Notes: generated from the letters alone by a model not told the origin. A DNA stretch of 64,000 nucleotides from a virus (IMGVR_UViG_3300031963_000024:69753-133752); one strand, 5' to 3'; counted from the first letter of the stretch, positions 2,323 through 44,887 are shown. Numbers and translations are program-made.

Positions 2323-2698
2323 TACTAGTCCTGTGTTGGCAAATGGTGTTAAGAACTATCTAATTGACATTGATGGTACAGTAACTGAAGATGTGCCAAA
2401 TGAAGAATCTGAACGTATGGCAACTTGTTTACCATATGAAGGTTCGGTAGATATGATTAACACTTGGTATGATGATGGACATATTATAACATTCTTCACA
2501 TCGAGGACTGATGAACATGAAATAGTAACCAAACAATGGTTAGATAAACATGGTTTCAAATACCACAACTTGTTACTTAATAAACCAAGAGGTGGAAACT
2601 ATCATTGGATTGATAATCACATTGTACGAGCGACTCGTTATGATGGTAAATGGGGTGAATTAGTTAAAAAAGAACACACAATAGAAGTATTTGAATAA
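2276..2698 (+). CDS. HAD-superfamily phosphatase (nucleotidase / Pnk-phosphatase-like)
   Basis: HAD motif I LIDIDGTVT (DxDGT); motif II FFTSRT; Lys/Asp motifs (NKPRGG, WIDNH). The 5' end overlaps dut by 47 nt in another frame. A TTG near 2335 could be the real start. Confidence 0.55.
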   Translation: MKKNEAQTDLVQQESNTSPVLANGVKNYLIDIDGTVTEDVPNEESERMATCLPYEGSVDMINTWYDDGHIITFFTSRTDEHEIVTKQWLDKHGFKYHNLLLNKPRGGNYHWIDNHIVRATRYDGKWGELVKKEHTIEVFE

Positions 2699-22250: not shown

Positions 22251-24047
22251 TTATCTCAATTCTCTTAAGTCAAATGTTCTAACACCATCAACTGTGATTT
22301 TACCGTAGAAACGGTTGTTCACCATCTTCTTAGCGTATCTTGTCATGATACCTTTGATAGGTGTGAAGTTGAATGGGTTATACATTGTTGGAGTCAATTG
22401 TAATGGTACGTATGGTGCGTACACATAACCTGTGTCTAACAATGAGTTACCTTTGTGACCCAACAATACTGTGTTTGGTGGGAAATAAGGGTCTCTGTAA
22501 ACTTGGTATCTACCAGCCAAAGTACCAACTCTTTCAATACCCATGTTGTATTGGTCTTGCTCAGGAGCTGCGTTTGATACGTGGAAGTATTCCAAATCAT
22601 CAAAGATTGCACTGATTTCTGAAGAAACAACAATCCAGTTAGCTCCACCTCTCAATGTTGATTTGTGGATTTGAGCTGAAAGTTGGTTGATTGCTGTAAT
22701 CAATGTTTGGTTCCAATCTTTTTGTGTGTATTGTGTTAATGGATTTGAAGCAGTTCCTCTCTTCCAACCGTTGTAATCCCATCTCAAAGTCCATGCTGCA
22801 CCTTTTCTCAAATCTCTCAAGATTTCTCTATCAATTTCTGCCGCAACTTGCTCAGACAATAAAGCTGTTAATTCAGCTTCAGCGTCAATGTTGTGGAATG
22901 CTGCAACGTCTTGTGCTAATTCAGGAGACCATTGTGCTCTCAATTTTCTTTCAGTTACAGAAACTGTTACTGATTCCAAATCAAAAGAAACTTCACCGAT
23001 TTCATCTTCAAATTCTAAGTTTTGATAAACTCTATATGTACATTTGAATGCTTGATTATATGCGGTTGTTACAGATGTTGTAACACCTGAGTAACCATCT
23101 AAAGAATCAGCACCGATTGAACAAGGAACTTGAGTATCCACCTCTAAGTAAATAATACCAAGAGCATCACAGATATTGTCATAAGAACCTCCATTACCTG
23201 TACTTGGGAATGATGTTGTTGCTTGTGAACCATATTGTACAATACCTTTACCGTATTTTTGAGTTACAACTCTAAATAATTGGTTACCAGACAATCCTGA
23301 AAAACCATTTGAAGTAGCATCTGTAATTGGTGTTACAGATAAGCTAGACAAAAACTCTTCAGAATCCATTTCGTTACCGTTAGGACCAATTAATTTACCA
23401 GCACCAGCTGTGTTAAATCCTGATAAAGCAATAATAACTTTTCTGTATTCACCAGCACTGTAACCACTTTGGATTAATTCTGAACCACTCCAAACTTGTG
23501 TAGACGCTGTGTATGTTTCAGCACTAAACTTACCTTTAGAATAGTCAAATAACCCTGGAGGGTCTAATGATGCTTCGTTACCTTCGTAGAATCTGTCATA
23601 CAAATTCTTATCGTTTGCGCCATAACCAGCATTTGTTGATGATGGTCCATTAGGTGCTCCAAAAGGTGCGAAGTGTGTACCACCTTCAGTTGGGTCTTGA
23701 CCCATGTCATAACCCTGAATTTTAGGTACGAAGTAGAACAATTTACCGATAGGTAAGTTCATAGCTTGTACAGATACGATGTCGTTAGCCAACAATTTAG
23801 AGAAAACTCTTCTTACGATTGGAAATACAACCGTTTCGAAAGAACCGTCTGATGCTGTGCTAGCAGCTTCGTTAATTAAGTGAGATGCTTGGTTTTCATA
23901 AAGTTGAGCGATGTTTTCTTTAACATGTCCTCTCAAACCTTCCAAGAATCCTAATTTGTCCCATTTGTTAATAGTATCTTCTTTGATAACTTTAAGGTGC
24001 TTAAGACCGATGTTACCAACAAGACCTGATTCTAATAATGCTCCCAT
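22251..24047 (-). CDS. Major capsid protein, T4 gp23-like
   Basis: N-terminus LLESGLVGN...AQLYENQA...VVFPIVRRVFSKLLANDIVSVQAMNLPIGKLFYF matches the conserved gp23-family block. The gene uses host-like high-expression codons (tac, aac, ttc, atc, cgt). Confidence 0.85.
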   Translation of the reverse strand: MGALLESGLVGNIGLKHLKVIKEDTINKWDKLGFLEGLRGHVKENIAQLYENQASHLINEAASTASDGSFETVVFPIVRRVFSKLLANDIVSVQAMNLPIGKLFYFVPKIQGYDMGQDPTEGGTHFAPFGAPNGPSSTNAGYGANDKNLYDRFYEGNEASLDPPGLFDYSKGKFSAETYTASTQVWSGSELIQSGYSAGEYRKVIIALSGFNTAGAGKLIGPNGNEMDSEEFLSSLSVTPITDATSNGFSGLSGNQLFRVVTQKYGKGIVQYGSQATTSFPSTGNGGSYDNICDALGIIYLEVDTQVPCSIGADSLDGYSGVTTSVTTAYNQAFKCTYRVYQNLEFEDEIGEVSFDLESVTVSVTERKLRAQWSPELAQDVAAFHNIDAEAELTALLSEQVAAEIDREILRDLRKGAAWTLRWDYNGWKRGTASNPLTQYTQKDWNQTLITAINQLSAQIHKSTLRGGANWIVVSSEISAIFDDLEYFHVSNAAPEQDQYNMGIERVGTLAGRYQVYRDPYFPPNTVLLGHKGNSLLDTGYVYAPYVPLQLTPTMYNPFNFTPIKGIMTRYAKKMVNNRFYGKITVDGVRTFDLRELR

Positions 24048-28246: not shown

Positions 28247-30088
28247 TTAAGTATTTAATAATTCGTTTAATTTGGTTTCAATTTCATTAATTGATGTTCT
28301 ACCTTTAGATAAATCAATTTCATCTCTACCACTAATTAAATCATCTTCCAAAATTAAATTTAAATCGTTCATTTTACTTTCAGGTGTTACTTCACCTCCA
28401 GCCGGTGGTTCAGGGGATTCAGGAATATCAGGTGCTCCACCCATATCTTCAGGTCCTCCACCTATTCCACCTAAACTACCCATATCACCACTTGGTGGTG
28501 CTCCACCCATATCGTCACCCTCAGCAGGTGGCGTGGCTGTTTCACCGGGTTTCTTACCATACAATCTATCAATATTATCAAAAATACCTGTATGAATAAT
28601 TACCTCAGGAGTTTTTTGTAATTCAGCCCCAACTGCTTTTTCAATTCTTTGTTGTTGGATATCCAATTTAATTTCCTCATCAGAGAATCCAAGAATGTGT
28701 TTTTTTGCCCATGTTGTTGATACCGCTTGGATACCGTTACCTGGGTCAGAAACCGCATCTTTATAAAGAAGTATTTTTTCTTTCCAATTCTCAATCTTTA
28801 ATAAATCAGCTTGAGTTGATGGGTTAGTTAATCCTAATGTGAAGTTTGTTAATTCATCTTCAAAACCAAGAATAAACAAGTGAATAATTGCAATCTTATT
28901 TAATTCCTGAATCATTGATTTTTGAATTCTATTAATTGTTCTCGCAAAACGAATATCTTGTAATGCCAAGTTCTTACCATCACCAACAACTTCTTCAAAA
29001 CCTAAGAACGCTTTTGGTACACGAAGAGCGGTTAATAATTTCTTTTGGATATATTCAATATCGGCAATTTCAGAAAGGTTCTGTGCTCCCGCCAATGTTT
29101 CAATAGGACTTGTTTGTGCTGGGTCACGAACAGGAATGAAATAATCTTGGTCAACCGCCATTTGGTTCATTCTTAAGTCAACGTTACCTGTTTTTGAGTC
29201 AACAACTTGGTCTCTCTTAAACTTATTAGCAATTCTTTGAATGTATGGTTCAACGTCCTTATCATCCATGTTACCAACATAAACTTTGAATACACGTCTT
29301 TCAGGTGCTCTTGATGTTCTATACACCAACATTGCATCTTCTGATAATAACAACTGTTTCCAAGTACGTCTTGCTTTTTCCAACATAGCAGTACCATAAG
29401 GAAGTTTTCTATCATCACCTAACAAACGGAAGTGTGCGACCTCCCAAGTATTCATTTCCATATCTTTTACTTTCCATACGAATTTCAAAGATTTTGCATC
29501 CTCAGTTGTATTATGTGATGGTTTGATTTTCATACCACGTTCCAAACGTTCAATTTCAATGTTTGGAAGTTGTTGACAACCCATAATACCTTTTTCAGAA
29601 TCCAATTTTAAGTAAACAAAGTTATCACCATACTTACAAGTGTTTCTTGTCCACATTGGTAAGTTGGTGTTAATATCCAATCTGTTATTAAATAAATCCG
29701 CTAATATTCCCTTAATTCTATTTGATTCTGAATATATTTGTAGGATATATCCATCTTCATTTGTTGTTGTTGATTCCTCAGCGTAGATATCAAGTGCTGC
29801 GGAAATTTCAGGGGTATACTCCATTGACTCATAATCATAGTATGATGCCAATCTTGTTGGTTCGTAATAAATTGCCTGAGAATATAAATTATTTTCTACT
29901 TTACCCCATTGTTGACCAAGATACATTGTCTGTTGAGCTTGGAGTTTTTCCTTCTCAAATTCTTGCTTATCTGTGGTTTTTAATAATTCCTTCTTATCAA
30001 ATTTATAAACTGGAGGCTGTTGACCCAAAGTTGAGTCGGGACCAAAGACTTTGGTAAGTCGTTGCCATATGGTGAAATTGTCTGCCAT
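28247..30088 (-). CDS. Putative portal protein (gp20-like by synteny) with Gly/Pro-rich C-terminal tail
   Basis: 613-aa ORF immediately downstream of the large terminase and upstream of the head-maturation genes. No motif verified. Confidence 0.45.
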   Translation of the reverse strand: MADNFTIWQRLTKVFGPDSTLGQQPPVYKFDKKELLKTTDKQEFEKEKLQAQQTMYLGQQWGKVENNLYSQAIYYEPTRLASYYDYESMEYTPEISAALDIYAEESTTTNEDGYILQIYSESNRIKGILADLFNNRLDINTNLPMWTRNTCKYGDNFVYLKLDSEKGIMGCQQLPNIEIERLERGMKIKPSHNTTEDAKSLKFVWKVKDMEMNTWEVAHFRLLGDDRKLPYGTAMLEKARRTWKQLLLSEDAMLVYRTSRAPERRVFKVYVGNMDDKDVEPYIQRIANKFKRDQVVDSKTGNVDLRMNQMAVDQDYFIPVRDPAQTSPIETLAGAQNLSEIADIEYIQKKLLTALRVPKAFLGFEEVVGDGKNLALQDIRFARTINRIQKSMIQELNKIAIIHLFILGFEDELTNFTLGLTNPSTQADLLKIENWKEKILLYKDAVSDPGNGIQAVSTTWAKKHILGFSDEEIKLDIQQQRIEKAVGAELQKTPEVIIHTGIFDNIDRLYGKKPGETATPPAEGDDMGGAPPSGDMGSLGGIGGGPEDMGGAPDIPESPEPPAGGEVTPESKMNDLNLILEDDLISGRDEIDLSKGRTSINEIETKLNELLNT

Positions 30089-30125: not shown

Positions 30126-31895
30126 TTATCTTCTACCGAATAACCATAAATACTGTTCATAATCCTTTTTTGTTGGATTTGATGAAAAAGCATCGTTATA
30201 TCCTGTTGGTGATAAAACAGGCATTCCCGGATTAAATTGTGTTATTTCTCTATTTGTACTGTCGTCAGCTACGGTCCAAGAGCTTAACATAGCCTTTGTT
30301 TGTTCATTAACCTTTTCAAGTTGATTATATGCGTTTTGTCCAACATATAAAGCCATTGACATTGACATAATTAAATCATCATGTTGCCCTTTCATGTGGT
30401 CAGGTCGTCCGTTTATATAAACATACGTATTCATCTCACCAAGTAATCTAGCAGAATACAATTTAAATCCATGTCTTAACGCTTCCTCAAACGCCGCAAT
30501 AATTTGAACCCTTTTACCATTAAAGTTTATACCCGGTATTTTTTCATTAGACTTAACAGTTGACTCCCAAATATTACCATAATTAATTCCATCAACATAT
30601 AAGTTTTTATAACCCAATTCTTGTAATTTTCTTGATGTTGAAACTCCCATACCACCCGTAATATCAATAACAATAAACGCATCGTAGTAATTTCCCCACT
30701 TATAAGCAATTTCAGCCGCAACATCAGGAGGAAGTTTTCCAACATACTCGGCAACTTGTTCCCTTTCGTCAAAATCGATAACTTGGAATGATGTAAAATC
30801 CTCAGAGTCACCCCTTGATACGTCCATACCCATAATGTATCTGTGACCAACAACTGGTTCTTTCCAAATCCATAATTGATTTTGAACCATCTTTGATTCA
30901 GGTTGACGAACCATTTCAGTTCTAATCTTATCAGTTAATTGTGCATCGAATACGTTATCTCCCGAACCTAAAAAGTTACATTCCAACTCCTGAGAAATTT
31001 TTCTCTTATCAAATTTTAACTTTTTGGCCATAGTTTCAAACCAACCAGAACTTACTTTGTAACCATCATCCATTAATTTTTTGAAATCACCAAAATTTCT
31101 TTGACTTGTTGGTACACCATCAAAACTAATAATCTCAGGGTTGGGGTATTCATCACGATTTAAAAAATAGTGAATTAAATCTTTGACTTTAATAAAGTAT
31201 AAATCTTTAGTATATCTTGGGTCTCTCCACCAATACATTTCAGTAACTTTAAAACTATTCATTCCTTTAATAGCCTGTTCATAGATACTGTAATAGATTG
31301 CATCATATCCGTTTGGTGTTGAAATTACAATAACTTTACCACCTGTTGATAACGATGCCATACAAGCTGCCCAGAAATCGTCATTAGCTTCGATGTACGC
31401 AGCCTCGTCAAATATCAATACGGTAGGGGTATAACCACGAAGTGCATCAGGTGAAGTTGCAACCGCTTTGACTTCACACCCATTTGATAATTTAAAGTGT
31501 CTTTGTGAATTCTTTTCAGATGAAAATGATACCCCCATCCAATTTGGCCACTGTTCCGTAAACCCTCTAATTTTATTAGCAAATTCTACCGCAGTATCTA
31601 ATTTGTTGGCAATTACAAGAATTTTTTCAGGTTTTTGTTTGTTTGCAAAAACTACTTTTTTAGACGCCCAAGCGGCAGTAACTGTTGATACACCGGCTTG
31701 ACGATATTTTAAGGCAATGTTTTCCTCGTAGTTATCATAATCTTCTACTAAGGTTTCTTGGTCAGGAAATAAATCCAACGGAACGTATTTTGACTGTGTG
31801 TTGTCATACGTTTGTAAATAATTTCTTAAAGCGTATGGAGTGTTTTTGACACACTTAGCATATTCTATAAGGGCTTGTTCTTTTGTGATACTCAT
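30126..31895 (-). CDS. Terminase large subunit, T4 gp17-like
   Basis: Walker A-like YRQAGVSTV; Walker B VLIFDEAAYI; C-terminal RNaseH-like nuclease motif MGMDVSRGDSEDFTSFQVIDFD. Confidence 0.8.
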   Translation of the reverse strand: MSITKEQALIEYAKCVKNTPYALRNYLQTYDNTQSKYVPLDLFPDQETLVEDYDNYEENIALKYRQAGVSTVTAAWASKKVVFANKQKPEKILVIANKLDTAVEFANKIRGFTEQWPNWMGVSFSSEKNSQRHFKLSNGCEVKAVATSPDALRGYTPTVLIFDEAAYIEANDDFWAACMASLSTGGKVIVISTPNGYDAIYYSIYEQAIKGMNSFKVTEMYWWRDPRYTKDLYFIKVKDLIHYFLNRDEYPNPEIISFDGVPTSQRNFGDFKKLMDDGYKVSSGWFETMAKKLKFDKRKISQELECNFLGSGDNVFDAQLTDKIRTEMVRQPESKMVQNQLWIWKEPVVGHRYIMGMDVSRGDSEDFTSFQVIDFDEREQVAEYVGKLPPDVAAEIAYKWGNYYDAFIVIDITGGMGVSTSRKLQELGYKNLYVDGINYGNIWESTVKSNEKIPGINFNGKRVQIIAAFEEALRHGFKLYSARLLGEMNTYVYINGRPDHMKGQHDDLIMSMSMALYVGQNAYNQLEKVNEQTKAMLSSWTVADDSTNREITQFNPGMPVLSPTGYNDAFSSNPTKKDYEQYLWLFGRR

Positions 31896-31912: not shown

Positions 31913-33244
31913 TTACTTGGTTGGCGGAGTATCAATACCTAAATCACTTAAGAAACTCAAGTCAACATCATCGTCATCATCATCGTCAGATGGATAACCC
32001 ATAGTGTCGTCATCGTCATCATCTTCATAGTTTGAACTACCTAAAATTTCTTCTAAATCTTGTTTGTTTAACTCATCGATGATTTGGTCAGCAATACGTT
32101 CCATTTCAGTATACGCAGTTGCATCACCCTTATTAACTCTTTGGGCTAATGATGTGAATTTGTTTTTTGGTAATTTAGAAAACTCTCTGAAAATTAAACT
32201 TTGAACAATCTTCATGTTGTCTTCTAATACTTTTGCAGGATATGTTTCCAACAATTTTTCCCACAAATATGTACCTGTGATAATATCAAATATTTCGTTT
32301 ACTAATGTGTCAGCAGTTTGTTTAACCATTTGAGCTTGAATTGGGTCAGTTGGTAAAGATGCCGCACCTAAAATATCGTAATAACCTTTAATTAATTCAT
32401 GAACCAAAATTGGGAACATAACCGCCTTTGCTCTAACAACAAAATTACCAGTATATTCACCGTCTTCATCTTGTTCCATTTCTACTTCTTCAGAACCACC
32501 CATATTTTGTCCCGCCGCAGCCATTTGTTGTACCATTTCAGGTGGTAATAACCAATACAAGTAATCATTCATTGCCATCAAAGCACCATACTTGTCAGTA
32601 ATACCAGGTTCCATTTCTTCCAATGAATCTCTGATTAATTCAAACATAAAGTGACCCTTTTTAGCGGCACCTTGAATAATTGCGTTCATAAATCTACGTT
32701 TTGCAACCATGTAATCAAAGTTTTCAAACGCATCTACAAATTCTTCTAAATCTTCACCTGAATCTTCAAATGCTAATTCAATATCTTCAGATGAAAACTC
32801 TTCAGGTTCTGCTTGGAAATTTTCATTCCCCGCTTCACCCATTCCAACCAACTTAGGGTCAAATTGTATAAATTCGGCATATTTTGGGTCAACCAATTCA
32901 TTTGATACTAAATCTTTTGCCAATTGTTCAAGTTCTTGTCTTCTTGAACTTTCAAATTGACTAACCTCACCAAACAATCTCATCATCATCATTTGAAGTC
33001 CACCCATATTGTTAGGAACATTCATTCCCAAATATCTTTCAAGTTTTGTCACAACATCTCTAAATCTTTTAGATGCTGCAATTTCTTCAAATGATTGTCT
33101 ATCATCTTCACCCTTTTTAGGAATAAATGGACTATTAGAAAGTGGTGTTTCACCTCTTTCAATTGCCCTTTTTAAATCAGGGTTTATACTAAAACCTGTT
33201 GGCTCATCAATTGGAGCTTCAAATATTTTTCTTTTGTTTTTCAT
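31913..33244 (-). CDS. Hypothetical protein with poly-Asp C-terminus
   Basis: 443-aa ORF. C-terminus is DDDDDDTMGYPSDDDDDDDVDLSF. Confidence 0.4.
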   Translation of the reverse strand: MKNKRKIFEAPIDEPTGFSINPDLKRAIERGETPLSNSPFIPKKGEDDRQSFEEIAASKRFRDVVTKLERYLGMNVPNNMGGLQMMMMRLFGEVSQFESSRRQELEQLAKDLVSNELVDPKYAEFIQFDPKLVGMGEAGNENFQAEPEEFSSEDIELAFEDSGEDLEEFVDAFENFDYMVAKRRFMNAIIQGAAKKGHFMFELIRDSLEEMEPGITDKYGALMAMNDYLYWLLPPEMVQQMAAAGQNMGGSEEVEMEQDEDGEYTGNFVVRAKAVMFPILVHELIKGYYDILGAASLPTDPIQAQMVKQTADTLVNEIFDIITGTYLWEKLLETYPAKVLEDNMKIVQSLIFREFSKLPKNKFTSLAQRVNKGDATAYTEMERIADQIIDELNKQDLEEILGSSNYEDDDDDDTMGYPSDDDDDDDVDLSFLSDLGIDTPPTK

Positions 33245-34188
33245 TATTTTAACTTGTAACCCATTGAGGTGAATGTATTATAGCTCAACCATTTTGGACC
33301 TTTAGCTTTTGGATTTGGTTTTTGTGCCGGTTCAATCTTGAAAGGATTTTTCTTACCAGGTGCTTTACTTGGTGTTTTTGTTGGTGTCTTAACAGGTGCT
33401 TTTGTTGGAGCTGGTGCTCCAACTCCCGCTTCAGTCATCTCAGCTTTTGGATTTGGTTTTTGCGCAGGTTCAATTTTAAAAGGGTTCTTCTTACCAGGTT
33501 GTTTTACTTTTTCACCTGGTTTTACAGTTGGTACCTTTGCAGGTGCCGGTGCCGATTTAGTTGAACCTTCAAACATTTTCATTAATTGACCTTTAGTGAT
33601 ATGTTCAGGTATATGCTTTTCAATTAACTTAGTCAAGCTTTCCTCCAATTCTTGCATATCTTTCTTCTTTTTTTCAGGTAATTTACTGAAATCAGTATCA
33701 TCTGAAAATTCTTTAGCCCATTTACACCATTTTCTTTTGGCTTTCTCAGTTCTTGAGTTTTCACATTTTGCCCAAAATAATCTTTGTTGTGATTTTGATT
33801 GAAACTTTTCGGTTACTTCAGTTTCACCTACCATTTTTCTATCATTATTTTGTGGTGATGTATCATCATCCATACCATCATCGGCAGATTGGCTCTCACC
33901 GTGAGCACCTAATTGTCCTGTATAATCTTGGTCAGCGTCTAATCCAAAATCATCTTCATCAATATTTTTTTCGGCTAAACCTAATTTTTTCATTTTTAAC
34001 TCAACATCGGTTAATTTTCTATTCAATAAATCCAATCCCTGAATGTTTTTTTCTAAGTTAGGATTTGTTGGTTGTTCAACCAATCTTGTATATAATAACC
34101 CAATCTGAGATTCATTCAAACCTCTTAGGGTGTTGTAAGTAAAACCATTACTTATCAATTTTTCTATTTTTTCACCAATGTTAGACAT
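33244..34188 (-). CDS. Hypothetical lysine/proline-rich protein with internal duplicated 19-aa segment
   Basis: PGKKNPFKIEPAQKPNPKA occurs twice. This is encoded by ~60-nt direct repeats about 138 nt apart. Confidence 0.4.
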   Translation of the reverse strand: MSNIGEKIEKLISNGFTYNTLRGLNESQIGLLYTRLVEQPTNPNLEKNIQGLDLLNRKLTDVELKMKKLGLAEKNIDEDDFGLDADQDYTGQLGAHGESQSADDGMDDDTSPQNNDRKMVGETEVTEKFQSKSQQRLFWAKCENSRTEKAKRKWCKWAKEFSDDTDFSKLPEKKKKDMQELEESLTKLIEKHIPEHITKGQLMKMFEGSTKSAPAPAKVPTVKPGEKVKQPGKKNPFKIEPAQKPNPKAEMTEAGVGAPAPTKAPVKTPTKTPSKAPGKKNPFKIEPAQKPNPKAKGPKWLSYNTFTSMGYKLK

Positions 34189-34585
34189 GTGTTAAATTTT
34201 TTTCAAATGTTAATATAATATCCCTCTCGTATAGTTTTGACATAACATCTTGTTCACTATCACCATAATGAAATACCAATCTTGTATCTTCTTCATTATA
34301 GTATTCATTTTCAATGTCTTCCCACGATAATGCAATCACTTTATCAACTGCGTCGTAGAAAGAAAAAAAGTCAGAGTTCTGAATAACGTTAAGTTTTATT
34401 TTATCGTTTTTTAGAACTCCAACTTTTGTTATGTAGTCTATATGAGGGGGTTGTGGATTTCCACCAGCTGGTGATGATTCCCAATCTTCCCCGCTTACGT
34501 CTTCGTTGTCTGAGAATATAAACTCATAAAGGTTGTCGCCTCTAAAGTTTGGTCCTAACTCATTTACGAAAACTAAACGGTTCAT
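34181..34585 (-). CDS. Hypothetical protein
   Basis: 134-aa ORF. Confidence 0.35.
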   Translation of the reverse strand: MNRLVFVNELGPNFRGDNLYEFIFSDNEDVSGEDWESSPAGGNPQPPHIDYITKVGVLKNDKIKLNVIQNSDFFSFYDAVDKVIALSWEDIENEYYNEEDTRLVFHYGDSEQDVMSKLYERDIILTFEKNLTHV

Positions 34586-35811
34586 AGAATTTCACCTTTT
34601 GGAGAAACCTTAATTTGTTTTCCCTCGTTTTCAAATACTAAGTTTTTCAAGTTAGTTTTACCAATAAATTTAGCACCTTCATTTTCCCTTAAAATAAATT
34701 CAGATGTTAATTCTTGTTCAATTGTTTCTGAAAGATTTTTAACTTCTTCCATAACACTAACTTTGTTTATTTTTTTCTTAATATAAGTTTGTACTTTTTT
34801 TGATTCGTTAAGTTCTTTTTCTTCAGGTGTTTCAACAAAATACTTAGATAATATTTTATCAACTTTAGACTCAGTAAACATACCGTCCATAATTGCATTT
34901 ATCTTAGAATTGTAACTATTACCTTCACCTACTTCAGGTTCAGCAGTAATTTCATCACCCATGTCCAAATCAGAAGTATCAGGTTCAGTTGGTTCCATAC
35001 CGATTTCGTCATAACTAGAACCATCTTCACCACCTTCCTCTCCTTCAAATCTTGATAAGATATCCTCCTTATCAGTTTCGTCCAATAAATTCAAATCAAC
35101 AGCTGATAAGATAGAATTAAGAACATACTTAACATCTTCAGAAGTCATTTCTTGTTCAGATGCGTAAGCTCTTAATTTTTGCCCCAATTTACCGGTTAAC
35201 TTTTGAACTTGTTTCAATGTCACAGGACCTTCATCTCCTTCACCACCCATATCATCTGGCATCATATCATCACTTGGTGGTTCTTCCATACCCATATCAT
35301 CCGGCATCATATCATCACTTGGTGGTTCAGGCATTGCCTCATCTCCCATAGGAGCAGGTGCTGGTTCAGGTGATGGTGCTGCCGGCATTTCAGGTGCGGG
35401 TGCAACGGGTGCAGGTGCGGGAACATCAGATTTTGGTGTTTTTAAAACAAACTTTTTTTGTTCACCAAACAATGCAGTACCTTGTTCATTTTCATTCAAT
35501 CTATTTAATTCACCTGCAATTAAATTTAATTTCTTTAATGCTTGTGAATAAGATGAATGATATTTTCTATTTTTCATTGGGTCAATGTAATCCAAAGTAG
35601 ATTCATCAATACCTTTTTTAACGATATATCCGTTTCTTTCTTTTACAATACCGTACACATTGCCATCGGCAAGTACTCTTGTATAATCGGTTGTTTCATT
35701 TACATTGATTTCTTGTTTAGGTGCTTCACCGTATCTTGCAATTTCCATTATTCTTGCAATCTTCTCGGCTCCTTGAAGTTTTTCACTACCTATTGGTTTT
35801 AAATCTGCCAT
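34582..35811 (-). CDS. Hypothetical protein with Pro/Ala linker and acidic tandem repeats
   Basis: Contains PAPAPVAPAPEMPAAPSPEPAPAP and a duplicated EPPSDDMMPDDMG segment. Confidence 0.4.
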   Translation of the reverse strand: MADLKPIGSEKLQGAEKIARIMEIARYGEAPKQEINVNETTDYTRVLADGNVYGIVKERNGYIVKKGIDESTLDYIDPMKNRKYHSSYSQALKKLNLIAGELNRLNENEQGTALFGEQKKFVLKTPKSDVPAPAPVAPAPEMPAAPSPEPAPAPMGDEAMPEPPSDDMMPDDMGMEEPPSDDMMPDDMGGEGDEGPVTLKQVQKLTGKLGQKLRAYASEQEMTSEDVKYVLNSILSAVDLNLLDETDKEDILSRFEGEEGGEDGSSYDEIGMEPTEPDTSDLDMGDEITAEPEVGEGNSYNSKINAIMDGMFTESKVDKILSKYFVETPEEKELNESKKVQTYIKKKINKVSVMEEVKNLSETIEQELTSEFILRENEGAKFIGKTNLKNLVFENEGKQIKVSPKGEIL

Positions 35812-36057: not shown

Positions 36058-36813
36058 TCAAAATAATTCATCATCTTCCAAAGAAAGACGTTTATCCATC
36101 AAATCATTTTCAAAGTCAAAAAGTTTTTGAAGATATCCATTTCTTCTTAAAACTTTAAAAGTTAAATTTTCATACGAGTATTCACCTTCTTTTTCTAACC
36201 CACTTGTTCTGTATTTTTTTATTTTATCTTTAACTTTTTTAATCATTTCTTTAGCGTCATCCAATTCTTCTTCCTCAGCATTATCAATGACAGTGTCTAT
36301 CATATCTTGTAATTGTCCTACCTTTTGAACTAAAATGTCTTTATCAATATTGACATCTTCTTCTTTCTTTGGGACGGTGTCCCACTCATCGTTCATGATG
36401 GAATATACACCCGATGAAAAGTGTGCTTCGTTTGAATCTTGGATATACAATTCAACTTCAAATCCTTTGATTGTGATATTGTGTGATGAGTTAAATAATG
36501 TTTTCTTTAATTTGAACAATTCAGAATACAATTCTTTTTGTTCCCCAAAATCTTCAAAGTTTACAATGATGTGTAAATCAACATCAGAATATTCAGACCA
36601 GTTGTAATTACACAATGAACCTGTCATGATAATGTCTTGAACAAACATATCAACATTAACGAATTTAATAAACTCTTCAGCGATTTCATTAAGTTGGTCT
36701 CTAATTTCCAACTTCATGTGTGACTTAGACGCATCGTCAGGATTTACCCATATTTCAGGATTTAATTCTTCTTGAACACCAAAACTAGAAATAATTTTTT
36801 GCAAGTCTTTCAC
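36058..36813 (-). CDS. Nucleotidyltransferase-fold protein (minimal NTase/Pol-beta superfamily)
   Basis: TGSLCNYNWSEYSDVDLHII matches the G[SG]-x9-13-DxD NTase signature. Confidence 0.45.
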   Translation of the reverse strand: MKDLQKIISSFGVQEELNPEIWVNPDDASKSHMKLEIRDQLNEIAEEFIKFVNVDMFVQDIIMTGSLCNYNWSEYSDVDLHIIVNFEDFGEQKELYSELFKLKKTLFNSSHNITIKGFEVELYIQDSNEAHFSSGVYSIMNDEWDTVPKKEEDVNIDKDILVQKVGQLQDMIDTVIDNAEEEELDDAKEMIKKVKDKIKKYRTSGLEKEGEYSYENLTFKVLRRNGYLQKLFDFENDLMDKRLSLEDDELF

Positions 36814-36833
36814 AATGATAAATACAAAGAACT

Positions 36834-37076
36834 TTACAATTTTTTGTATTTATAATTTTTACTGATTTCAGTGGTGAAAAACTTACCTTGTGATTCTGAT
36901 AATCTGAACTTAGCGTAAACTTTGTGTGGTACATTTTCATATTCATACTTTGTACCGTTTTTAAATGTAACAACCATATTTTCGGTTGACATATCATACT
37001 GTGATTCTGTGATGTTGGATGATTCAATTACATTATAAATCATCATACCTTTAATTTCTTCTCTTAAAATTGCCAT
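36834..37076 (-). CDS. KTSC domain-containing protein
   Basis: 80-aa protein. VVTFKNGTKYEYENVPHKVYAKFRLSESQGKFF fits the KTSC pattern (Y.Y..VP..v...F..A.S.G..F). Confidence 0.45.
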   Translation of the reverse strand: MAILREEIKGMMIYNVIESSNITESQYDMSTENMVVTFKNGTKYEYENVPHKVYAKFRLSESQGKFFTTEISKNYKYKKL

Positions 37077-37087
37077 ACTAATAAATA

Positions 37088-37118
37088 CAAAAAAACCCCT
37101 ACTTTGTGTAGGGGTTTT
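37088..37118. terminator. Bidirectional rho-independent terminator
   Basis: AAAAAAACCCCTAC-TTTGT-GTAGGGGTTTTT. Confidence 0.75.
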
Positions 37119-37121
37119 TCT

Positions 37122-37577
37122 TTAGGACTTCATTTTATTTATTTTGTCTCGTAATTTAATTGCCGATTCAAAGTCTTGTTTACTTATAACCTCGTCCAAT
37201 TCGGTTTGTAGTTTTTTGACTTCATCTTTGTTCTTTTCAAGTTTTTTGATTTTATCTCTAACTTCGGCAGCCTTTTCAAATTCTTGATTTTCAACATAAT
37301 TTTCAATCTCTTTTTTAAGTAGAGAAATTTCATCAGTTTCTTTAGGAGACTTTTTGTTTGGAGTTCCATAAGTCGTTGTAATCACGTACCTAAACATTCC
37401 ATTTGGTGATGTATACGTTTCTGTTTTCCATTCACCATTTTCATTAGAACCTTCTTTAATTTCAGATTCATCATGTGAGATAGATGAAAATTCTTGGTTT
37501 AATGAACCAATCATCTCATCCAATTCACTCATCATTTCTTTTAAACTTTTTCTGTTTCTTCCAAATAATTCAAACAT
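37122..37577 (-). CDS. UVR-motif protein (two UvrB/UvrC-like motifs)
   Basis: Two UVR-like motifs, EFEKAAEVRDKIKKLEKN and DFESAIKLRDKINKMK. The gene is divergent from the ClpC-like gene. Confidence 0.45.
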   Translation of the reverse strand: MFELFGRNRKSLKEMMSELDEMIGSLNQEFSSISHDESEIKEGSNENGEWKTETYTSPNGMFRYVITTTYGTPNKKSPKETDEISLLKKEIENYVENQEFEKAAEVRDKIKKLEKNKDEVKKLQTELDEVISKQDFESAIKLRDKINKMKS

Positions 37578-37602
37578 ATTTTTTTTCTTAATTTTTTTAG
37601 TT

Positions 37603-37610
37603 TATCTTTG
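37603..37610 (+). promoter_or_regulatory. Bacteroidetes sigma-A-type -7 element (TATCTTTG) upstream of clpC-like gene
   Basis: TTTATCTTTGTAA matches the TAnnTTTG consensus. This is one of 8 copies of a conserved TATCTTTGTAT motif at gene 5' ends. Confidence 0.55.
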
Positions 37611-37721
37611 TAAAACCAATTATACAAAAATATGCCAAACAAGTAAACCTGACAATATGTCATATTTGTATGTCATTTTGACATTATTGATAATTTAGAA
37701 TAAAAACTTATACTTTAACAT

Positions 37722-39806
37722 ATGATTGAATCACAAGACCAAAACGAAAAGATGGGTGGAAACCGAAAAGGTAAAACAGATACAATTAACTCCAAAACAC
37801 CTGTTTTGGACAATTTTTCTCGTGACCTTATTAAACTAGCAAAAGAAGGCAAACTTGACCCTGTAATTGGTAGGGAACATGAGATTGAAAGATTGGCACA
37901 GATTATTTCAAGAAGAAAGAAAAACAACCCTATTTTGATTGGTGAACCAGGTTGTGGTAAAACCGCAATTGTTGAAGGTTTAGCTATGAAAATATTTCAA
38001 GGAGACTGTCCTCAAAACTTAATTGATAAAAGAATTGTTAGTTTAGATATGACATCAATTGTTGCCGGTACAAAATATCGTGGACAGTTTGAAGAACGTA
38101 TTAAAGTAATACTTGATGAGTTGAGTGATAACCATGATGTTGTCATATTCATTGATGAAATTCACACAATCATTGGTGCTGGAAATTCATCAGGTTCGTT
38201 GGACGCTTCTAATATCTTTAAGCCAGCACTTGCTCGTGGTGAACTCCAGTGTATTGGTGCGACAACCTTAGATGAATACCGTGAACATATTGAAAAGGAT
38301 GGTGCGTTAGAGCGTCGTTTCCAAAAAGTACATGTTGATGCAACATCTATTGAGGACACAATTATAATTATGAATCGTGCCAAAGAAAACTACGAAAAAC
38401 ATCACAAGGTTCATTTTAGTAATGAAGTTATTAAAACTTGTGTAATGTTGGCGGACCGATACATCACTGACCGTGAGTTTCCTGATAAAGCAATTGATAT
38501 TATGGATGAGGTAGGTGCAAGATGTCAAATCAACGTAACCGTTCCTGAAATTATTGAAAAACTTAAAGAGGAAGCAAACCAAATTAAGGACCGTAAAGTT
38601 GAAGTTGTTAGAAGTCAAAAGTACGAAGAAGCTGCGGAATTACGAGATATGGAACGTAAAGTTTTAGCTCGTCTTCAAGAAGAAAAAGAGAAGTTTGAAA
38701 AAGACCGACTAACAAATAAAAAAGAAGTTACCGAAGAAATGGTTTATGAAGTTGTTTCCCAAATGACCAAAATCCCAATTTCAAAACTTTCACAATCAGA
38801 ATCAGATTCGTTAATTAATTTAGAAGAAAGTTTAACCAAAGCGGTTATTGGACAAGAAGATGCGGTATCTAAAATTTCAAAAGCAATCCGTAGGAATCGT
38901 GTAGGTATTAAAGACCCGAATAAACCAATTGGTTCATTTATTTTCTTGGGTTCAACAGGTATTGGTAAAACACATTTGGCTAAACAATTAGCCAAAGAAA
39001 TCTTTGGAAGTTCAGATGCTTTGATTCGTGTAGATATGTCTGAGTATCAAGAAAAATTTACAATGACAAGATTGGTTGGTTCGCCTCCAGGTTATGTTGG
39101 TCACCAAGAAGGTGGACAATTAACTGAACAAGTTAAAAACAAACCTTATTGTGTAATCTTGTTTGATGAAATTGAAAAGGCACACAAAGACGTTTATTCA
39201 CTTTTGCTACAAGCGATGGATGAGGGACATTTGACTGACGGTCTTGGTAGAAAAATCAACTTTAAAAATACCTTGATTATTATGACATCTAACATTGGTG
39301 CTAGAAAAGTACAAGACTTTGGTACTGGAGTTGGATTTGGAACTCGTTCTAAAAATGAAAAAGAAACTGAAATCAAACAAATGATGATTGAGGATGAACT
39401 TAAAAAGTTTTTTCCACCTGAATTTTTGAATCGTGTTGATGATGTTGTTTTCTTTAATTCATTAAAAGAAAATGAAATTAAACAAATTGTTACTTTGGAA
39501 ATTTCTAAATTAATTTTACGATTACGTTCTATGAACTATAACATTGTTATTGATGAAAGTTTGGTTAGTAGAATTTGTGAAGTTGGGTTTGATGAAAAAT
39601 TTGGGGCTCGTCCAATCAAAAGAGCTATCCAAAATCAAATTGAGGATTTTATCTCAGATGAGATTCTTAAGAAGAATATTGTTAATGATTCAGTATATAT
39701 ATTGGAGTTTGTTGATGACAAAGTTCGTATAAAAGAAAAAACATCAGAAATTACTGATGTTTCAGAAAAACCAAAAAGGGGTAGAACAAAAAAAGGGGTC
39801 AATTAA
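37722..39806 (+). CDS. ClpC/ClpB-like double-ring AAA+ unfoldase lacking Clp_N domain
   Basis: D1 module: [15 protein letters not shown], Walker [20 protein letters not shown]. Middle UVR motif [14 protein letters not shown] (ClpC-type). D2 module: [28 protein letters not shown], sensor [11 protein letters not shown] candidate VGF loop (GTGVGFGTR) is present. Confidence 0.85.
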
Positions 39807-39822
39807 GACCCCTTTTTTTTAA
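39788..39822. terminator. Bidirectional rho-independent terminator
   Basis: AAAAAAGGGGTC-AATTAA-GACCCCTTTTTTTT at a convergent junction. Confidence 0.75.
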
Positions 39823-40661
39823 TCCCATAACATCCATCGTTCCGTTTTTGGTTTGTGTTCGTGGAATGTGTGACCCAAACTTTCAATCATTTGTTTTACC
39901 ATCTCAATCGCTGTGAACACATCCTCAATAACAACATACTCATTGGCTGTGTGGTAGTTGTAATAACCACAAGATACATTTAAACAAGCAATGTTGAATT
40001 TTGATGCAATTTGTGAAACGTCAGTGTACGGGTGTTTCATCAATTCATGTTTTTCACCAAAATGTTCATTAAGAAGTGGTCCAACCTTTTCAAAGAAAGG
40101 AGAGTTACGGTCAAAAAGTTTTACACCCCAACAATATTCAGTTACCATCCAAGATTCGGGAGCATCAAACTGAATACAGTAACCAACATTAGAGAAAAAC
40201 TCAGGACTTGCTTTTCGTGAACCGTGACAACCTGTTTCTTCAGATACAAAGAAAGCCGCTTTAATAACGGGGAGTTGTTCAAGGACATCTAAACATGAAT
40301 AGACACCACATTTGTCATCACCACCAATTCCAACAGGGTTACCTGTAACTGCGTGATAAGCCTTAAAGGAATCTTTTAGTTCCCCATGTACGTTTGGGAG
40401 TTGTTCTTCCTCTACAACCATTTCAGTGATTGAGTGGACGGTGTCAGTATGTGCAATAACACATGGATAGACATCTGCCTCACCTTTTGTAACATAAACG
40501 TTACCATACTGGTCAATTGTGTGGTCGTATCCTTTTTCAGTAAAATACTTGTCAAGATACTCAATCATAAGAGTTTCTTGGTAAGTTTTAGTCGGAATAG
40601 AAAGGACTTCTTTTAGGTGTTGAATTTTTTCTGGAGTCATTTGACTACAAAGATACAACAA
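39819..40661 (-). CDS. M20/M28/M42-family zinc metallopeptidase-like protein
   Basis: Metal-ligand motifs VIAHTDTVH, GGDDKCGV and SEETGCHG. Confidence 0.45.
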   Translation of the reverse strand: MLYLCSQMTPEKIQHLKEVLSIPTKTYQETLMIEYLDKYFTEKGYDHTIDQYGNVYVTKGEADVYPCVIAHTDTVHSITEMVVEEEQLPNVHGELKDSFKAYHAVTGNPVGIGGDDKCGVYSCLDVLEQLPVIKAAFFVSEETGCHGSRKASPEFFSNVGYCIQFDAPESWMVTEYCWGVKLFDRNSPFFEKVGPLLNEHFGEKHELMKHPYTDVSQIASKFNIACLNVSCGYYNYHTANEYVVIEDVFTAIEMVKQMIESLGHTFHEHKPKTERWMLWD

Positions 40662-40666
40662 ATATT

Positions 40667-42817
40667 TTAAATTTCAAAAAGTTGATAATTTTTTAACAAA
40701 GAAATTAGTTGTTCAAAAGTTAATGTATATTTTTTAACTTTTGCCGAGTATCCAATATTTTTTTGTATTTTCACGGTTATTGTATTATCAGGTTCCACAC
40801 CAACAATTATAATCTGTGTGTCTTTTAAAGTTGGTATGTCTTTTTTAACATTAAAACCAATCTTATCAACAATGTATGATACTATTTTTTGATATTCTTG
40901 GATATCATCAAATGCGCCATCTTCTTCATCAAATAAGTTTTCATATAATTCATCTAACAATTTTTCGGATTCAGAATTAAACCTTGCGTCAAAAGTATCA
41001 TCATCTTTGTATTCATAATAATTATCAAAAATATCACTTACCGAGATTTCTTCATCAATCGCAGCAGTAATAACGGCTCTAATTGATTTTTGTGGTGAAC
41101 CATATTTTTCATAAAGTGACAACATATTGTCAACCGATGTATAATATTTACGAAAACAAACTTTAGATTCAACACCAATTGGTTCTAAAACATTACAATA
41201 TTCATCATTAACCGCAGCTTCAATTCCAACTGTATACGCATCATTAGTAGCATATTCATATTCTTCCGTCATTTTTTCTTTAAACCAATTGTGTGCGTTT
41301 AAAATTTCAGCACATTTAGAATAATAATCACTCCTATAATTTTTCATCAATTCATCTTTTTGTTGAAATAATTGTGGTGAAATGAGAGTGATAATATTAT
41401 CTAATTTTTCTTTATTTTCTTGATTTAAAGATGTTAAAACATAACCTTCCTTCCAATCTTCCTCGGCAGTATATGAATCAACCCATTCAGTTTGTCTACC
41501 ATAACTATTACCCGCAAATGACTCTAACTGTGATATTGTGTATTCGTATAGTTGATGTTTAAATAATTTAAAATAATCTTCAGGGTCAAAAAATAACATA
41601 ACATTTCCATCAACAATTTCAAAAGTTTCTTCACCACTTGTAATATTAAACGATGCGTCAATTTTATCTTTTTTATAGTTAAGTAATGTTTGATAATCAG
41701 TTCCACCAATGTTTAAAATGTTACTTAATATTTCGTCCATTCCTGGCATTGATGCGTATAACACATCAAAATTTGAACGATTGTCTTGTTGGTCCCATAC
41801 TTCAGGTTTTCCACTTTCAGGTATTCTAATGGCAAATTTTGAATTTCTAATGTTGGTTCCTTTTTTATTGATTACATAAACAAATTTTGAATTTCTAGTG
41901 TAATCGTCAAAGTATCTTGAACTATCTCTTGATGAAACACACCATTTTGTTTCCGCACCATAAACACAAGATGCTTGGTAAGTCATTGGTTGAACAATCA
42001 AATATTTTTGGTCTTCGTATAATTTTCTTGACTCATTCTTGGCTTTTTTAATTTCATCTGTTGTATATGTTCTATTTTTGATTTGACGAAAAAACTCTCT
42101 CATCGCATTTATATCTGGATATGCGTTGATGTCTTTTGGTGATTTAACAATTTTATTATACGACGAACCAAAATTTTCTAAATCACCTCTCTTCAATCTA
42201 TTTGCAAATTCTTCGGTGTCTTTTTTGGAAACTCTTCTATCAATAAAAATCATTATGTCACTAACCTGAGACATTGAATTTAACAAATTAATCCAATCAA
42301 GTTTTTTAATTTCTCTTGCCTGTGATATTACCCAAGGCAAATACTTTTTTGTTGAACTTTCATCACGAGCCCAAAGTGAATCAAATATTTCTTTTTTTAA
42401 ATTTTCATTATCAACATCTTTTCCCCAATCAATATCCAAACTTTTAAAGTCATTATATAAATCAGTTTGTTTATCTTCTCTTAATAACCCCTCAAATAAC
42501 GTTCTTAGGTCCTCTGAAGGACCGTTAAGCATCACGTCAATATAATGTGACGTTTCCTCAGGTTTATCTTCAACACTACCAAGATATTCACTTTTACCAT
42601 TATACTCACAATAAATTCCACCTTCAGGTGTTATGGTTAATGTAAATGTTAATCCGTCACCTTCAATAACATATTGTTCAGTTCCAACATCAGTGTTATC
42701 ATCATATGTACAAGTAATTCTTTCTGTTGGGAAATCAAATTTTCCCAAAATCTCTTGTATTTTAGTAATATAAGAAAAATATGAAGCTGGTTGTCCGAAA
42801 TAACTTATTTGTTCCAT
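40667..42817 (-). CDS. Hypothetical large protein
   Basis: 716-aa ORF. Confidence 0.4.
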   Translation of the reverse strand: MEQISYFGQPASYFSYITKIQEILGKFDFPTERITCTYDDNTDVGTEQYVIEGDGLTFTLTITPEGGIYCEYNGKSEYLGSVEDKPEETSHYIDVMLNGPSEDLRTLFEGLLREDKQTDLYNDFKSLDIDWGKDVDNENLKKEIFDSLWARDESSTKKYLPWVISQAREIKKLDWINLLNSMSQVSDIMIFIDRRVSKKDTEEFANRLKRGDLENFGSSYNKIVKSPKDINAYPDINAMREFFRQIKNRTYTTDEIKKAKNESRKLYEDQKYLIVQPMTYQASCVYGAETKWCVSSRDSSRYFDDYTRNSKFVYVINKKGTNIRNSKFAIRIPESGKPEVWDQQDNRSNFDVLYASMPGMDEILSNILNIGGTDYQTLLNYKKDKIDASFNITSGEETFEIVDGNVMLFFDPEDYFKLFKHQLYEYTISQLESFAGNSYGRQTEWVDSYTAEEDWKEGYVLTSLNQENKEKLDNIITLISPQLFQQKDELMKNYRSDYYSKCAEILNAHNWFKEKMTEEYEYATNDAYTVGIEAAVNDEYCNVLEPIGVESKVCFRKYYTSVDNMLSLYEKYGSPQKSIRAVITAAIDEEISVSDIFDNYYEYKDDDTFDARFNSESEKLLDELYENLFDEEDGAFDDIQEYQKIVSYIVDKIGFNVKKDIPTLKDTQIIIVGVEPDNTITVKIQKNIGYSAKVKKYTLTFEQLISLLKNYQLFEI

Positions 42818-44792: not shown

Positions 44793-44878
44793 GCTTGGGT
44801 GGCGGAATAGGTAGACGCGCTGGACTTAAAATCCAGTGAACAGTAATGTTCGTACGGGTTCGATTCCCGTCTCAAGTA
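44793..44878 (+). tRNA. tRNA-Leu (anticodon UAA), type II with long variable arm
   Basis: Acceptor GCTTGGG/CTCAAGT (two G.U pairs). D-arm GCGG-AATAGGTAGA-CGC. Anticodon arm CTGGA-CTTAAAA-TCCAG. Long variable arm. T-arm ACGGG-TTCGATT-CCCGT. Discriminator A. No encoded CCA. Confidence 0.8.
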
Positions 44879-44887
44879 CTAAAAGAA

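Follow-up and report, generated by a model that had tools for sequence, protein, structure and literature searches.

We analyzed a 64,000-nucleotide stretch of viral DNA (IMGVR_UViG_3300031963_000024:69753-133752), here called the window. A three-gene locus occupies positions 37,122 to 40,661 (Table 1). The central gene encodes a double-ring AAA+ unfoldase of the ClpC type that lacks the N-domain. A gene for a small protein with two tandem UVR motifs, here called UVR2x, is transcribed divergently from it. A gene for a zinc exopeptidase is convergent with it. A preliminary description of this DNA had placed three open reading frames (ORFs) here, and all three were recovered at the same coordinates and on the same strands. 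Judged by its sequence, the window comes from a T4-like jumbo phage. Its G+C content is about 31%.

Table 1. Features of the locus and of neighboring genes in the window
Feature	Position	Strand	Basis or remark
N-domain-less ClpC-like double-ring AAA+ unfoldase, 694 amino acids	37722-39806	+	Pfam, NCBIfam, ClpC alignment
D1 Walker A GEPGCGKT, residues 74-81	37941-37964	+	96% mean conservation, 79 phage homologues
Short ClpC-type M-domain, one UVR-like motif	38532-38756	+	Inserted in D1; gap-free alignment to Staphylococcus aureus ClpC
ClpP-docking loop F533-G-T-G-V-G-F539	39318-39338	+	Aligns with ClpC P-loop
Tandem-UVR protein UVR2x, 151 amino acids	37122-37577	-	Two Pfam UVR motifs, E 1.4e-16
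UVR motifs of UVR2x	37233-37331 and 37128-37223	-	
Divergent regulatory region, 144 bp	37578-37721	.	Two 13-bp palindromes TGACA-N3-TGTCA
Palindrome TGACAATATGTCA	37650-37662		
Palindrome TGTCATTTTGACA	37671-37683		
Hairpin and T-run terminator	37089-37121	-	Directly after UVR2x stop; 14-bp stem, 5 GC pairs
Lid-less clan-MH (M20/M42-like) di-zinc exopeptidase	39819-40661	-	Convergent with ClpC-like gene
Terminator-like hairpin for peptidase transcript	39738-39763	-	Inside 3' end of ClpC-like ORF; consensus scan only
KTSC-domain protein, 80 amino acids	36834-37076	-	Pfam KTSC, 1e-16; conserved neighbor
Nucleotidyltransferase-fold protein, 251 amino acids	36058-36813	-	Weak Pfam NTP_transf_2 and MTPAP-like matches; PHROG 36119
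Conserved protein, 716 amino acids	40667-42817	-	Upstream of peptidase, same strand; in 73 loci
Major head protein	22251-24047		PHROG 138
T4-type portal	28247-30088		Pfam Portal_T4, 3.5e-77
Large terminase	30126-31895		Best cultured relatives about 28% identical: Flavobacterium phage immuto and a Microcystis phage

The ClpC-like unfoldase and its origin

Both AAA modules of the 694-amino-acid protein matched Pfam models (AAA, 1.3e-24; AAA_lid_9, 5e-27; AAA_2, 4e-63; ClpB_D2-small, 1e-20). With phmmer, residues 19 to 677 aligned with residues 154 to 812 of S. aureus ClpC without large gaps (E 2.6e-223). Residues 144 to 804 of Bacillus subtilis ClpC also aligned without large gaps. The Walker A and B motifs, the pore loops (KYRG and GYVG), and the D2 arginine-finger region are present and are 93 to 100% conserved in 79 phage homologues. 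The M-domain lies opposite AQEFENAANLRD of S. aureus ClpC, and Y301 at its tip is the equivalent of F436. All phage M-domain sequences inspected have Y or F at this tip, and conservation of the aromatic residue is about 90% or higher in the phage and Bacteroidota sets. The UVR-family profile matches the M-domain region weakly. The short ClpC M-domain is not known to contain the second motif of ClpB, which couples to DnaK. The protein had been described beforehand as a ClpC type with both AAA modules and a UVR-type M-domain, and the Pfam matches and the gap-free M-domain alignment bear this out.

Clp_N gave no Pfam match in the 694-amino-acid protein, and the alignment starts at ClpC residue 154. 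The first 25 or so residues align with the low-complexity linker downstream of the N-domain of bacterial ClpC. The 144 bp upstream of the gene are intergenic, so no N-domain is hidden there. The reported lack of this domain is thus correct. A correspondence between the phage start codon and a conserved internal Met of bacterial ClpC was rejected as an alignment artefact.

The protein contains a ClpP-docking loop. A VGF-like loop had been raised earlier as a possibility, and the ClpC alignment puts V537-G-F539 on the P-loop, where S. aureus ClpC reads AGF. All 79 phage and all 77 Bacteroidota sequences share F533, G534, G538, and F539, and the 79 phage sequences have V, I, or L at position 537. 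In the phage set, the 16 residues after the loop are about 52% conserved, whereas the loop core is invariant.

Other Hsp100 families fit less well. ClpB was rejected; its NCBIfam model (TIGR03346) matched in two pieces with 822 bits against a cutoff of 1,232, and the ClpP loop is present. ClpB and ClpL are not known to have a ClpP-docking loop. ClpA, ClpE, and ClpL were also rejected. The phage protein has an M-domain and a ClpP loop, has no N-terminal Cys motif, and matched these families more weakly than ClpC among PDB sequences. As these families are defined, ClpA has no M-domain, ClpE has an N-terminal zinc finger, and ClpL has no ClpP loop.

The nearest cellular homologues are ClpC proteins of Bacteroidota (55 to 61% identity; Flavobacteriales, Crocinitomicaceae, Chitinophagaceae, and Saprospiraceae). 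The full-length bacterial copies have about 840 to 890 amino acids, with about 160 to 200 residues before the aligned part, and all those examined contain the N-domain. The phage protein shares with them D1, the M-domain, D2, the Walker, pore-loop, and arginine-finger motifs, and the F-G-x-G-[VI]-G-F loop. It differs in lacking the N-domain of about 145 amino acids. On sequence grounds, the phage gene is a copy of Bacteroidota ClpC minus its two Clp_N repeats. No homologues of UVR2x or of the peptidase were found within 5 kb of Bacteroidota clpC.

At least 578 IMG/VR contigs encode relatives of the ClpC-like protein. The best 80 are 64 to 94% identical to it, and the contigs that encode them reach 321 kb. 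The protein lacks the N-domain in 88 of 88 clade loci, where it has 657 to 719 amino acids. The gene belongs to the core set of a clade of T4-like jumbo phages with Bacteroidota hosts. The preliminary description had called a phage Hsp100 protein uncommon. That was overstated, given this number of contigs, an existing protein family (PHROG 4871), and two papers that mention Clp ATPases in jumbo phages.

The 79 distinct phage ClpC-like sequences are monophyletic on a neighbor-joining tree. Contigs of 302 to 306 kb encode a 72% identical copy in the same gene order as the window. Two huge phages of 634 to 642 kb also encode an N-domain-less ClpC: LR745206 (701 amino acids; locus L001, 5887-7992) and LR756502 (707 amino acids; locus L002, 5923-8046). 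These copies are 75% identical to Bacteroidota ClpC versus 60% to the clade of the window, and they fall among the bacterial sequences, outside the phage clade. Their identity and tree position indicate that ClpC was acquired, and its N-domain lost, a second time. The genes next to them are unrelated to those of the window and encode glycosyltransferases. The huge phages thus appear to have acquired and truncated a ClpC separately, on a tree that carries no support values.

The window probably belongs to the moraphages or to a close relative. Moraphages are T4-related freshwater phages of up to 307 kb with Bacteroidota hosts (Perez-Hernandez et al. 2025, PMC12619734). The window would share the freshwater, T4-like, and Bacteroidota-host traits. 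The moraphage core-gene table lists a Clp ATPase and a "putative peptidase," neither of which is discussed further, and some moraphages carry DnaK, DnaJ, and HSP20 (PMC12619734). Clp genes in jumbo phages were also noted by Iyer et al. (2021, PMC7824862).

Two irregular forms of the gene were seen in related loci. In six of them (L210, L213, L216, L228, L232, and L233), an interruption of about 480 bp lies exactly at the D1 Walker A motif (e.g., L210, 2956-3436). It opens as GEPG|CVLGDTWIEV, like intein block A, but stop codons interrupt the frame that was read. Possible explanations are a degenerate intein, an intron, and an assembly error. In L179 (1325-3857), ClpC-like residues 1 to 78 and 23 to 692 are encoded in two stretches about 300 bp apart. 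The 5' end of the gene may thus have undergone partial duplication or received an insertion.

UVR2x, the partner slot, and the divergent spacer

The divergent gene contains two UVR motifs, as had been reported. In the family alignment, a Phe-rich N-terminal helix is conserved, the small beta unit that follows is variable, and the two UVR hairpins are highly conserved. F100 and F136 are invariant and lie at the hairpin position that matches the M-domain tip. The AlphaFold2 model is of moderate confidence (predicted local distance difference test [pLDDT], 67), and Foldseek returned nothing from the PDB at an E value of 0.001 or below. The family has about 170 clusters at 50% identity (E <= 1e-10), nearly all of 60 to 190 amino acids. 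A protein search of GenBank phages gave no match.

A reading of UVR2x as McsA was rejected. Only its UVR part matches the NCBIfam McsA model (E 5.6e-11; 42.5 bits versus a cutoff of 210). McsA has N-terminal CxxC zinc fingers, a C-terminal UVR-like region, and McsB as partner. UVR2x has no cysteine, which excludes the McsA zinc fingers. McsA of Firmicutes and ClpF of plants are also small UVR-motif proteins of ClpC pathways. UVR2x differs from both in its two tandem UVR motifs, and it has no Pfam YccV match. UvrB and UvrC were rejected because only the last 40 or so residues of their models match. An origin of the N-terminal half from a small heat shock protein (sHSP) found no support either; there was no Pfam HSP20 match, and hhalign aligned 14 residues with a probability of 5.7%.

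Searches anchored on the UVR gene found the ClpC-like gene adjacent and divergent in 75 of 80 viral loci. Of the five others, four are at contig ends and one (L227) is a genuine exception, which leaves 75 of 76 testable loci. L227 (3848-4336) holds the sole UVR2x homologue found without a ClpC-like gene within 4 kb. Its neighbors are a 108-amino-acid protein ending in a Cys-x-Cys motif and other unrelated small genes. Gene insertions occur between UVR2x and the KTSC gene and rarely between UVR2x and the ClpC-like gene.

Searches anchored on the ClpC-like gene gave a different picture. UVR2x occupies the divergent position in 45 of 88 loci. The other occupants of this slot are an sHSP (11 loci), a PPYYP-motif family of 95 to 117 amino acids (9 loci), the L9_180 family of about 180 amino acids (4 loci), and other small ORFs (3 loci). 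The slot is empty in 16 loci. The sHSPs (Pfam HSP20, E 5e-15 to 7e-12) are encoded on the minus strand about 130 to 200 bp upstream of the ClpC-like start (L013, L042, L048, L059, L061, L067, L071, L085, L088, L089, and L090). Parsimony on the ClpC tree requires at least 22 changes of slot content. A profile search found no hidden UVR2x copies in the loci that lack it. No ClpC residues, in the M-domain especially, separate loci with UVR2x from those without it beyond phylogenetic noise. The UVR protein had been proposed as a dedicated partner. Its constant position beside the ClpC-like gene is that of a dedicated neighbor, but it is an accessory gene in a variable slot.

The spacer between the two genes contains a pair of palindromes and is the sole intergenic site of this motif in the window. 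One other exact match (TGTCA-N3-TGACA at 2875) is inside an ORF. Across 87 related loci, 64 palindromes lie within 300 bp upstream of the ClpC-like gene and 3 lie in the remaining 1.09 Mb or so, an enrichment of about 900-fold. None was found upstream of 77 bacterial clpC genes. A version with an N4 spacer occurred at chance level, and N3 is correct. The palindrome is present with UVR2x in 36 of 45 loci, with the sHSP in 10 of 11, and with the L9_180 family in 4 of 4. It is absent with the PPYYP family (0 of 9) and the other small ORFs (0 of 3), and it occurs at 1 of the 16 loci with an empty slot. Because the palindrome tracks UVR2x and the sHSP, both occupy the same regulatory and positional niche. 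We consider it a putative operator of the divergent promoter region. No paper mentioning this palindrome was found.

The terminator directly after the UVR2x stop indicates that UVR2x is probably a monocistronic unit of its own, apart from the KTSC gene. A scan of positions 36700 to 41000 for sigma-70-type promoters found 17 sites against 17.9 expected. Candidate boxes of the Bacteroidota-type consensus TAnnTTTG can be read in the spacer.

The exopeptidase and the surrounding genes

The convergent gene encodes a metallopeptidase, as had been proposed. It matches Pfam M20 (27.5 bits versus a cutoff of 24.6) and PHROG 4191 (E 1e-42). The match to Pfam M42 is below threshold (19.1 bits versus a cutoff of 23.2), although the fold is similar. 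The AlphaFold2 model has a pLDDT of 88 and a predicted template modeling score of 0.89. Foldseek matched it best to PepT, TET/M42 aminopeptidases, and the DapE catalytic domain (E about 1e-11). The PepT match is in two pieces, with query residues 13 to 167 on chain residues 9 to 168 and query residues 216 to 262 on chain residues 326 to 371. The roughly 150 PepT residues skipped are the inserted lid/dimerization domain, which is missing in the phage peptidase.

The metal-binding and catalytic residues H71, D73, D115/D116, E141, E142, D166, and H237 are invariant in 26 homologues. The enzyme shares with PepT (M20B) and TET (M42) the clan-MH fold and a complete H-D-E-E-D-H di-zinc site. Unlike them, it has about 273 to 280 amino acids and no lid/dimerization domain between the equivalents of D166 and H237. 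The longest ORF starts with TTG at 40661 and has 280 amino acids; an ATG at 40640 gives 273. The homologues have about 273 amino acids and align from 40640, so this ATG is the probable true start.

The peptidase gene adjoins the ClpC-like gene in 85 of 88 loci, in either orientation. In the convergent arrangement, as in the window, the protein has about 260 to 285 amino acids. In one sub-lineage, the gene is codirectional, begins 21 to 69 bp after the ClpC-like stop, and encodes about 350 to 385 amino acids with an unrelated C-terminal extension. The orientation changed about three times on the tree.

The genes on either side are also conserved. The KTSC gene was found in 87 of 91 scanned loci, three outgroup loci included, and the nucleotidyltransferase-fold gene was found in 86 of 91. 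A Pfam scan of the 716-amino-acid protein gave no match. Two conserved proteins of the morphogenesis block (33244-34188 and 34582-35811) contain long low-complexity stretches. One has an acidic Pro/Ala-rich tract, and the other has a repeated GKKNPFKIEPAQKPNPKA unit. Neither has a family match; they may be scaffold or internal head proteins.

The window contains other features of note. A 1,511-amino-acid protein (53854-58389) combines PKD-like repeats with a CHU_C type IX secretion signal at its C terminus, which is odd for a phage protein. The 305-kb relatives encode a protein of the same type. The CHU_C signal supports a Bacteroidota host. A 546-amino-acid protein (2698-4338) is a fusion of two different glycosyltransferase domains, Glyco_tranf_2_5 and Glyco_transf_4. 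The sole tRNA in the window is a tRNA-Leu (anticodon TAA; 44793-44879). The DNA of the locus gave no match to GenBank phages. A known anti-phage defense system was rejected; PADLOC gave only partial AAA-module matches for the ClpC-like protein and no match for five other neighbors.

Possible function and alternative explanations

Jenne et al. (2025, PMC12583610) studied S. aureus ClpC without its N-domain (deltaN-ClpC). This protein has a higher ATPase activity and binds ClpP, unlike the wild type. It forms head-to-head ring dimers through its M-domains, as well as rods with ClpP, and does not degrade substrate (PMC12583610). When the M-domain tip is also mutated (deltaN-F436A), it is highly active, has relaxed substrate choice, and is more toxic (PMC12583610). 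The phage protein is truncated at the same point, in the linker before D1, and keeps the M-domain. By analogy, it is predicted to bind ClpP, to have raised ATPase activity, and to form M-domain ring dimers. The two differ in that deltaN-ClpC is a laboratory construct that is proteolytically inert unless F436 is mutated, whereas the phage version is natural, is under purifying selection, and has candidate partner genes.

We tentatively propose that the phage protein may be a ClpP-coupled, adaptor-independent unfoldase in which M-domain repression is handled by a partner protein. We regard this as quite possible, though short of probable. The window contains no clpP, clpS, or mecA detectable by tblastn with the queries used. 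From this and the natural equivalence to deltaN-ClpC, we propose that the phage hexamers would dock on host ClpP. Lacking the N-domain, they would not receive the N-domain-dependent adaptors, degrons, and repression of the host, so substrates would be chosen through the pore. Engineered deltaN-ClpC is locked by M-domain contacts and the phage protein keeps the tip, so an M-domain ligand is probably needed.

UVR2x is the clear candidate for this ligand, as both of its hairpins carry the same aromatic tip. UVR domains pair with each other, as UvrB does with UvrC. The UVR2x hairpins could cap or bridge the M-domains, either to activate the motor or to deliver clients, and the N-terminal part of UVR2x could contact those clients. 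The occurrence of an sHSP under the same palindrome in sister phages argues that the clients may be non-native or aggregated proteins. The exopeptidase encoded next to the motor would break the released peptides down to amino acids. TET-type enzymes finish peptides from ATP-dependent proteases. The net result would be a phage-controlled module for proteostasis and proteolysis in a long jumbo-phage infection. A similar principle is seen in SPO1 Gp53, an adaptor-like phage protein that acts on host ClpC (Mulvenna et al. 2019, PMC6873191). UVR2x would likewise be a small phage protein controlling ClpC-ClpP proteolysis. Gp53 targets the ClpC of the host itself, whereas this phage brings its own N-domain-less motor.

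Several points weigh against this proposal. The block from portal to peptidase is syntenic and collinear across the clade, so the adjacency of the ClpC-like, UVR2x, and peptidase genes is inherited in part. UVR2x is absent from 43 of 88 loci anchored on the ClpC-like gene, and the M-domains are alike even where the slot is empty. It follows that either the system can do without this partner or another part of the genome supplies a replacement. The PHROG 4191 family also occurs in Cellulophaga, Klebsiella, Pectobacterium, and Bacillus phages. We inspected two such contexts; both are early or replication regions that lack a Clp gene, which argues for a function of the peptidase of its own. A place for the peptidase in the same system, as the preliminary description suggested, is thus backed by adjacency only. 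The ClpP loop is as conserved in the bacterial parent as in the phages, so its retention could partly reflect structural constraint. To our knowledge, the regulation of Bacteroidota-type ClpC is unstudied, and the behavior of S. aureus deltaN-ClpC may not transfer to it.

A bolder version of the proposal can be put forward, which we consider doubtful as a whole. Here, UVR2x would be an M-domain-capping anti-repressor or adaptor that makes the N-domain-less ClpC a constitutive, adaptor-free ClpP protease. UVR2x and the sHSP would be interchangeable delivery cassettes under one operator. Together they would make up a phage-encoded, heat-shock-like regulon for recycling host protein into amino acids, a process that the exopeptidase would complete, and two phage lineages would have lost the N-domain separately.

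The ClpC-like protein could instead be a chaperone or disaggregase that acts independently of ClpP, together with the sHSP, UVR2x, and, in relatives, DnaK and DnaJ. It would keep structural proteins soluble or remodel assembly intermediates, and no proteolysis would be involved. The position of the gene agrees with this, inside a morphogenesis block with the portal, terminase, and major head protein. So do the 11 loci with an sHSP in the slot and the DnaK, DnaJ, and HSP20 of published relatives (PMC12619734). The related ClpL has been cited as a stand-alone disaggregase with M-domain ring dimers. Such a role does not account for the ClpP tripeptide and FG anchor, which are invariant in 79 of 79 sequences while the rest of the loop drifts. 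The M-domain is also of the short ClpC type, and the ClpB model matches only in pieces and below its cutoff. We consider this explanation unlikely, but it is a serious contender. Processing of the capsid or scaffold, a role offered in the preliminary description, finds nothing specific in its favor, and the core genes of published relatives include a T4-type prohead core protease.

The three genes could also be unrelated neighbors that stay together through inherited synteny in a conservative region, with UVR2x and the peptidase acting on other targets. The collinearity of the whole region, the absence of UVR2x from half of the loci, the different setting of its homologue in L227, and the wide occurrence of the peptidase family without Clp would all be expected. 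We find this distinctly unlikely. Despite at least 22 changes in the slot, the same few families return to the divergent position with the same palindrome. UVR2x adjoins the ClpC-like gene at every testable locus except one, and the peptidase has stayed adjacent through about three changes of orientation.

Interference with host ClpC is the weakest explanation. The N-domain-less copy would co-assemble with the host protein or compete for ClpP, and so disable N-domain-dependent proteolysis or stress and defense signaling; UVR2x could equally target the host M-domain. Natural N-domain-less isoforms such as ClpB80 of Escherichia coli mix with the full-length protein, SPO1 Gp53 is a precedent for phages targeting ClpC, and the phage protein is 55 to 61% identical to Bacteroidota ClpC, with an identical ClpP loop, pore loops, and M-domain tip. 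This is nevertheless improbable, as the proteins have diverged by about 40%, the phage clade is monophyletic and evolves on its own, and competition alone needs no intact ATPase or pore motifs, yet all are conserved.

Some of this was already known, namely that jumbo phages carry Clp ATPases (PMC12619734, PMC7824862) and that phages manipulate ClpC (PMC6873191). The two jumbo-phage papers list Clp genes only and do not treat N-domain loss, the ClpP loop, a partner slot, an operator, or separate acquisition. Our literature search found no description of consistent N-domain loss with the ClpP loop kept, of its apparent recurrence in a second phage lineage, of a variable UVR2x/sHSP partner slot, or of a palindromic operator.

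The locus ties heat shock genes reported in Bacteroidota jumbo phages into one place. It also points to an uncharacterized operator and an uncharacterized family of small proteins. The N-domain and M-domain normally keep ClpC inactive, and deregulation of ClpC is lethal to bacteria. Several antibiotics act through such deregulation. In this clade, a strongly conserved ClpC lacks the N-domain naturally and has candidate partners for its M-domain. It would reveal how a virus can make a protease that lies beyond the controls of its host, and it is a ready-made test of the two-lock model of ClpC, with one lock in the N-domain and one in the M-domain.

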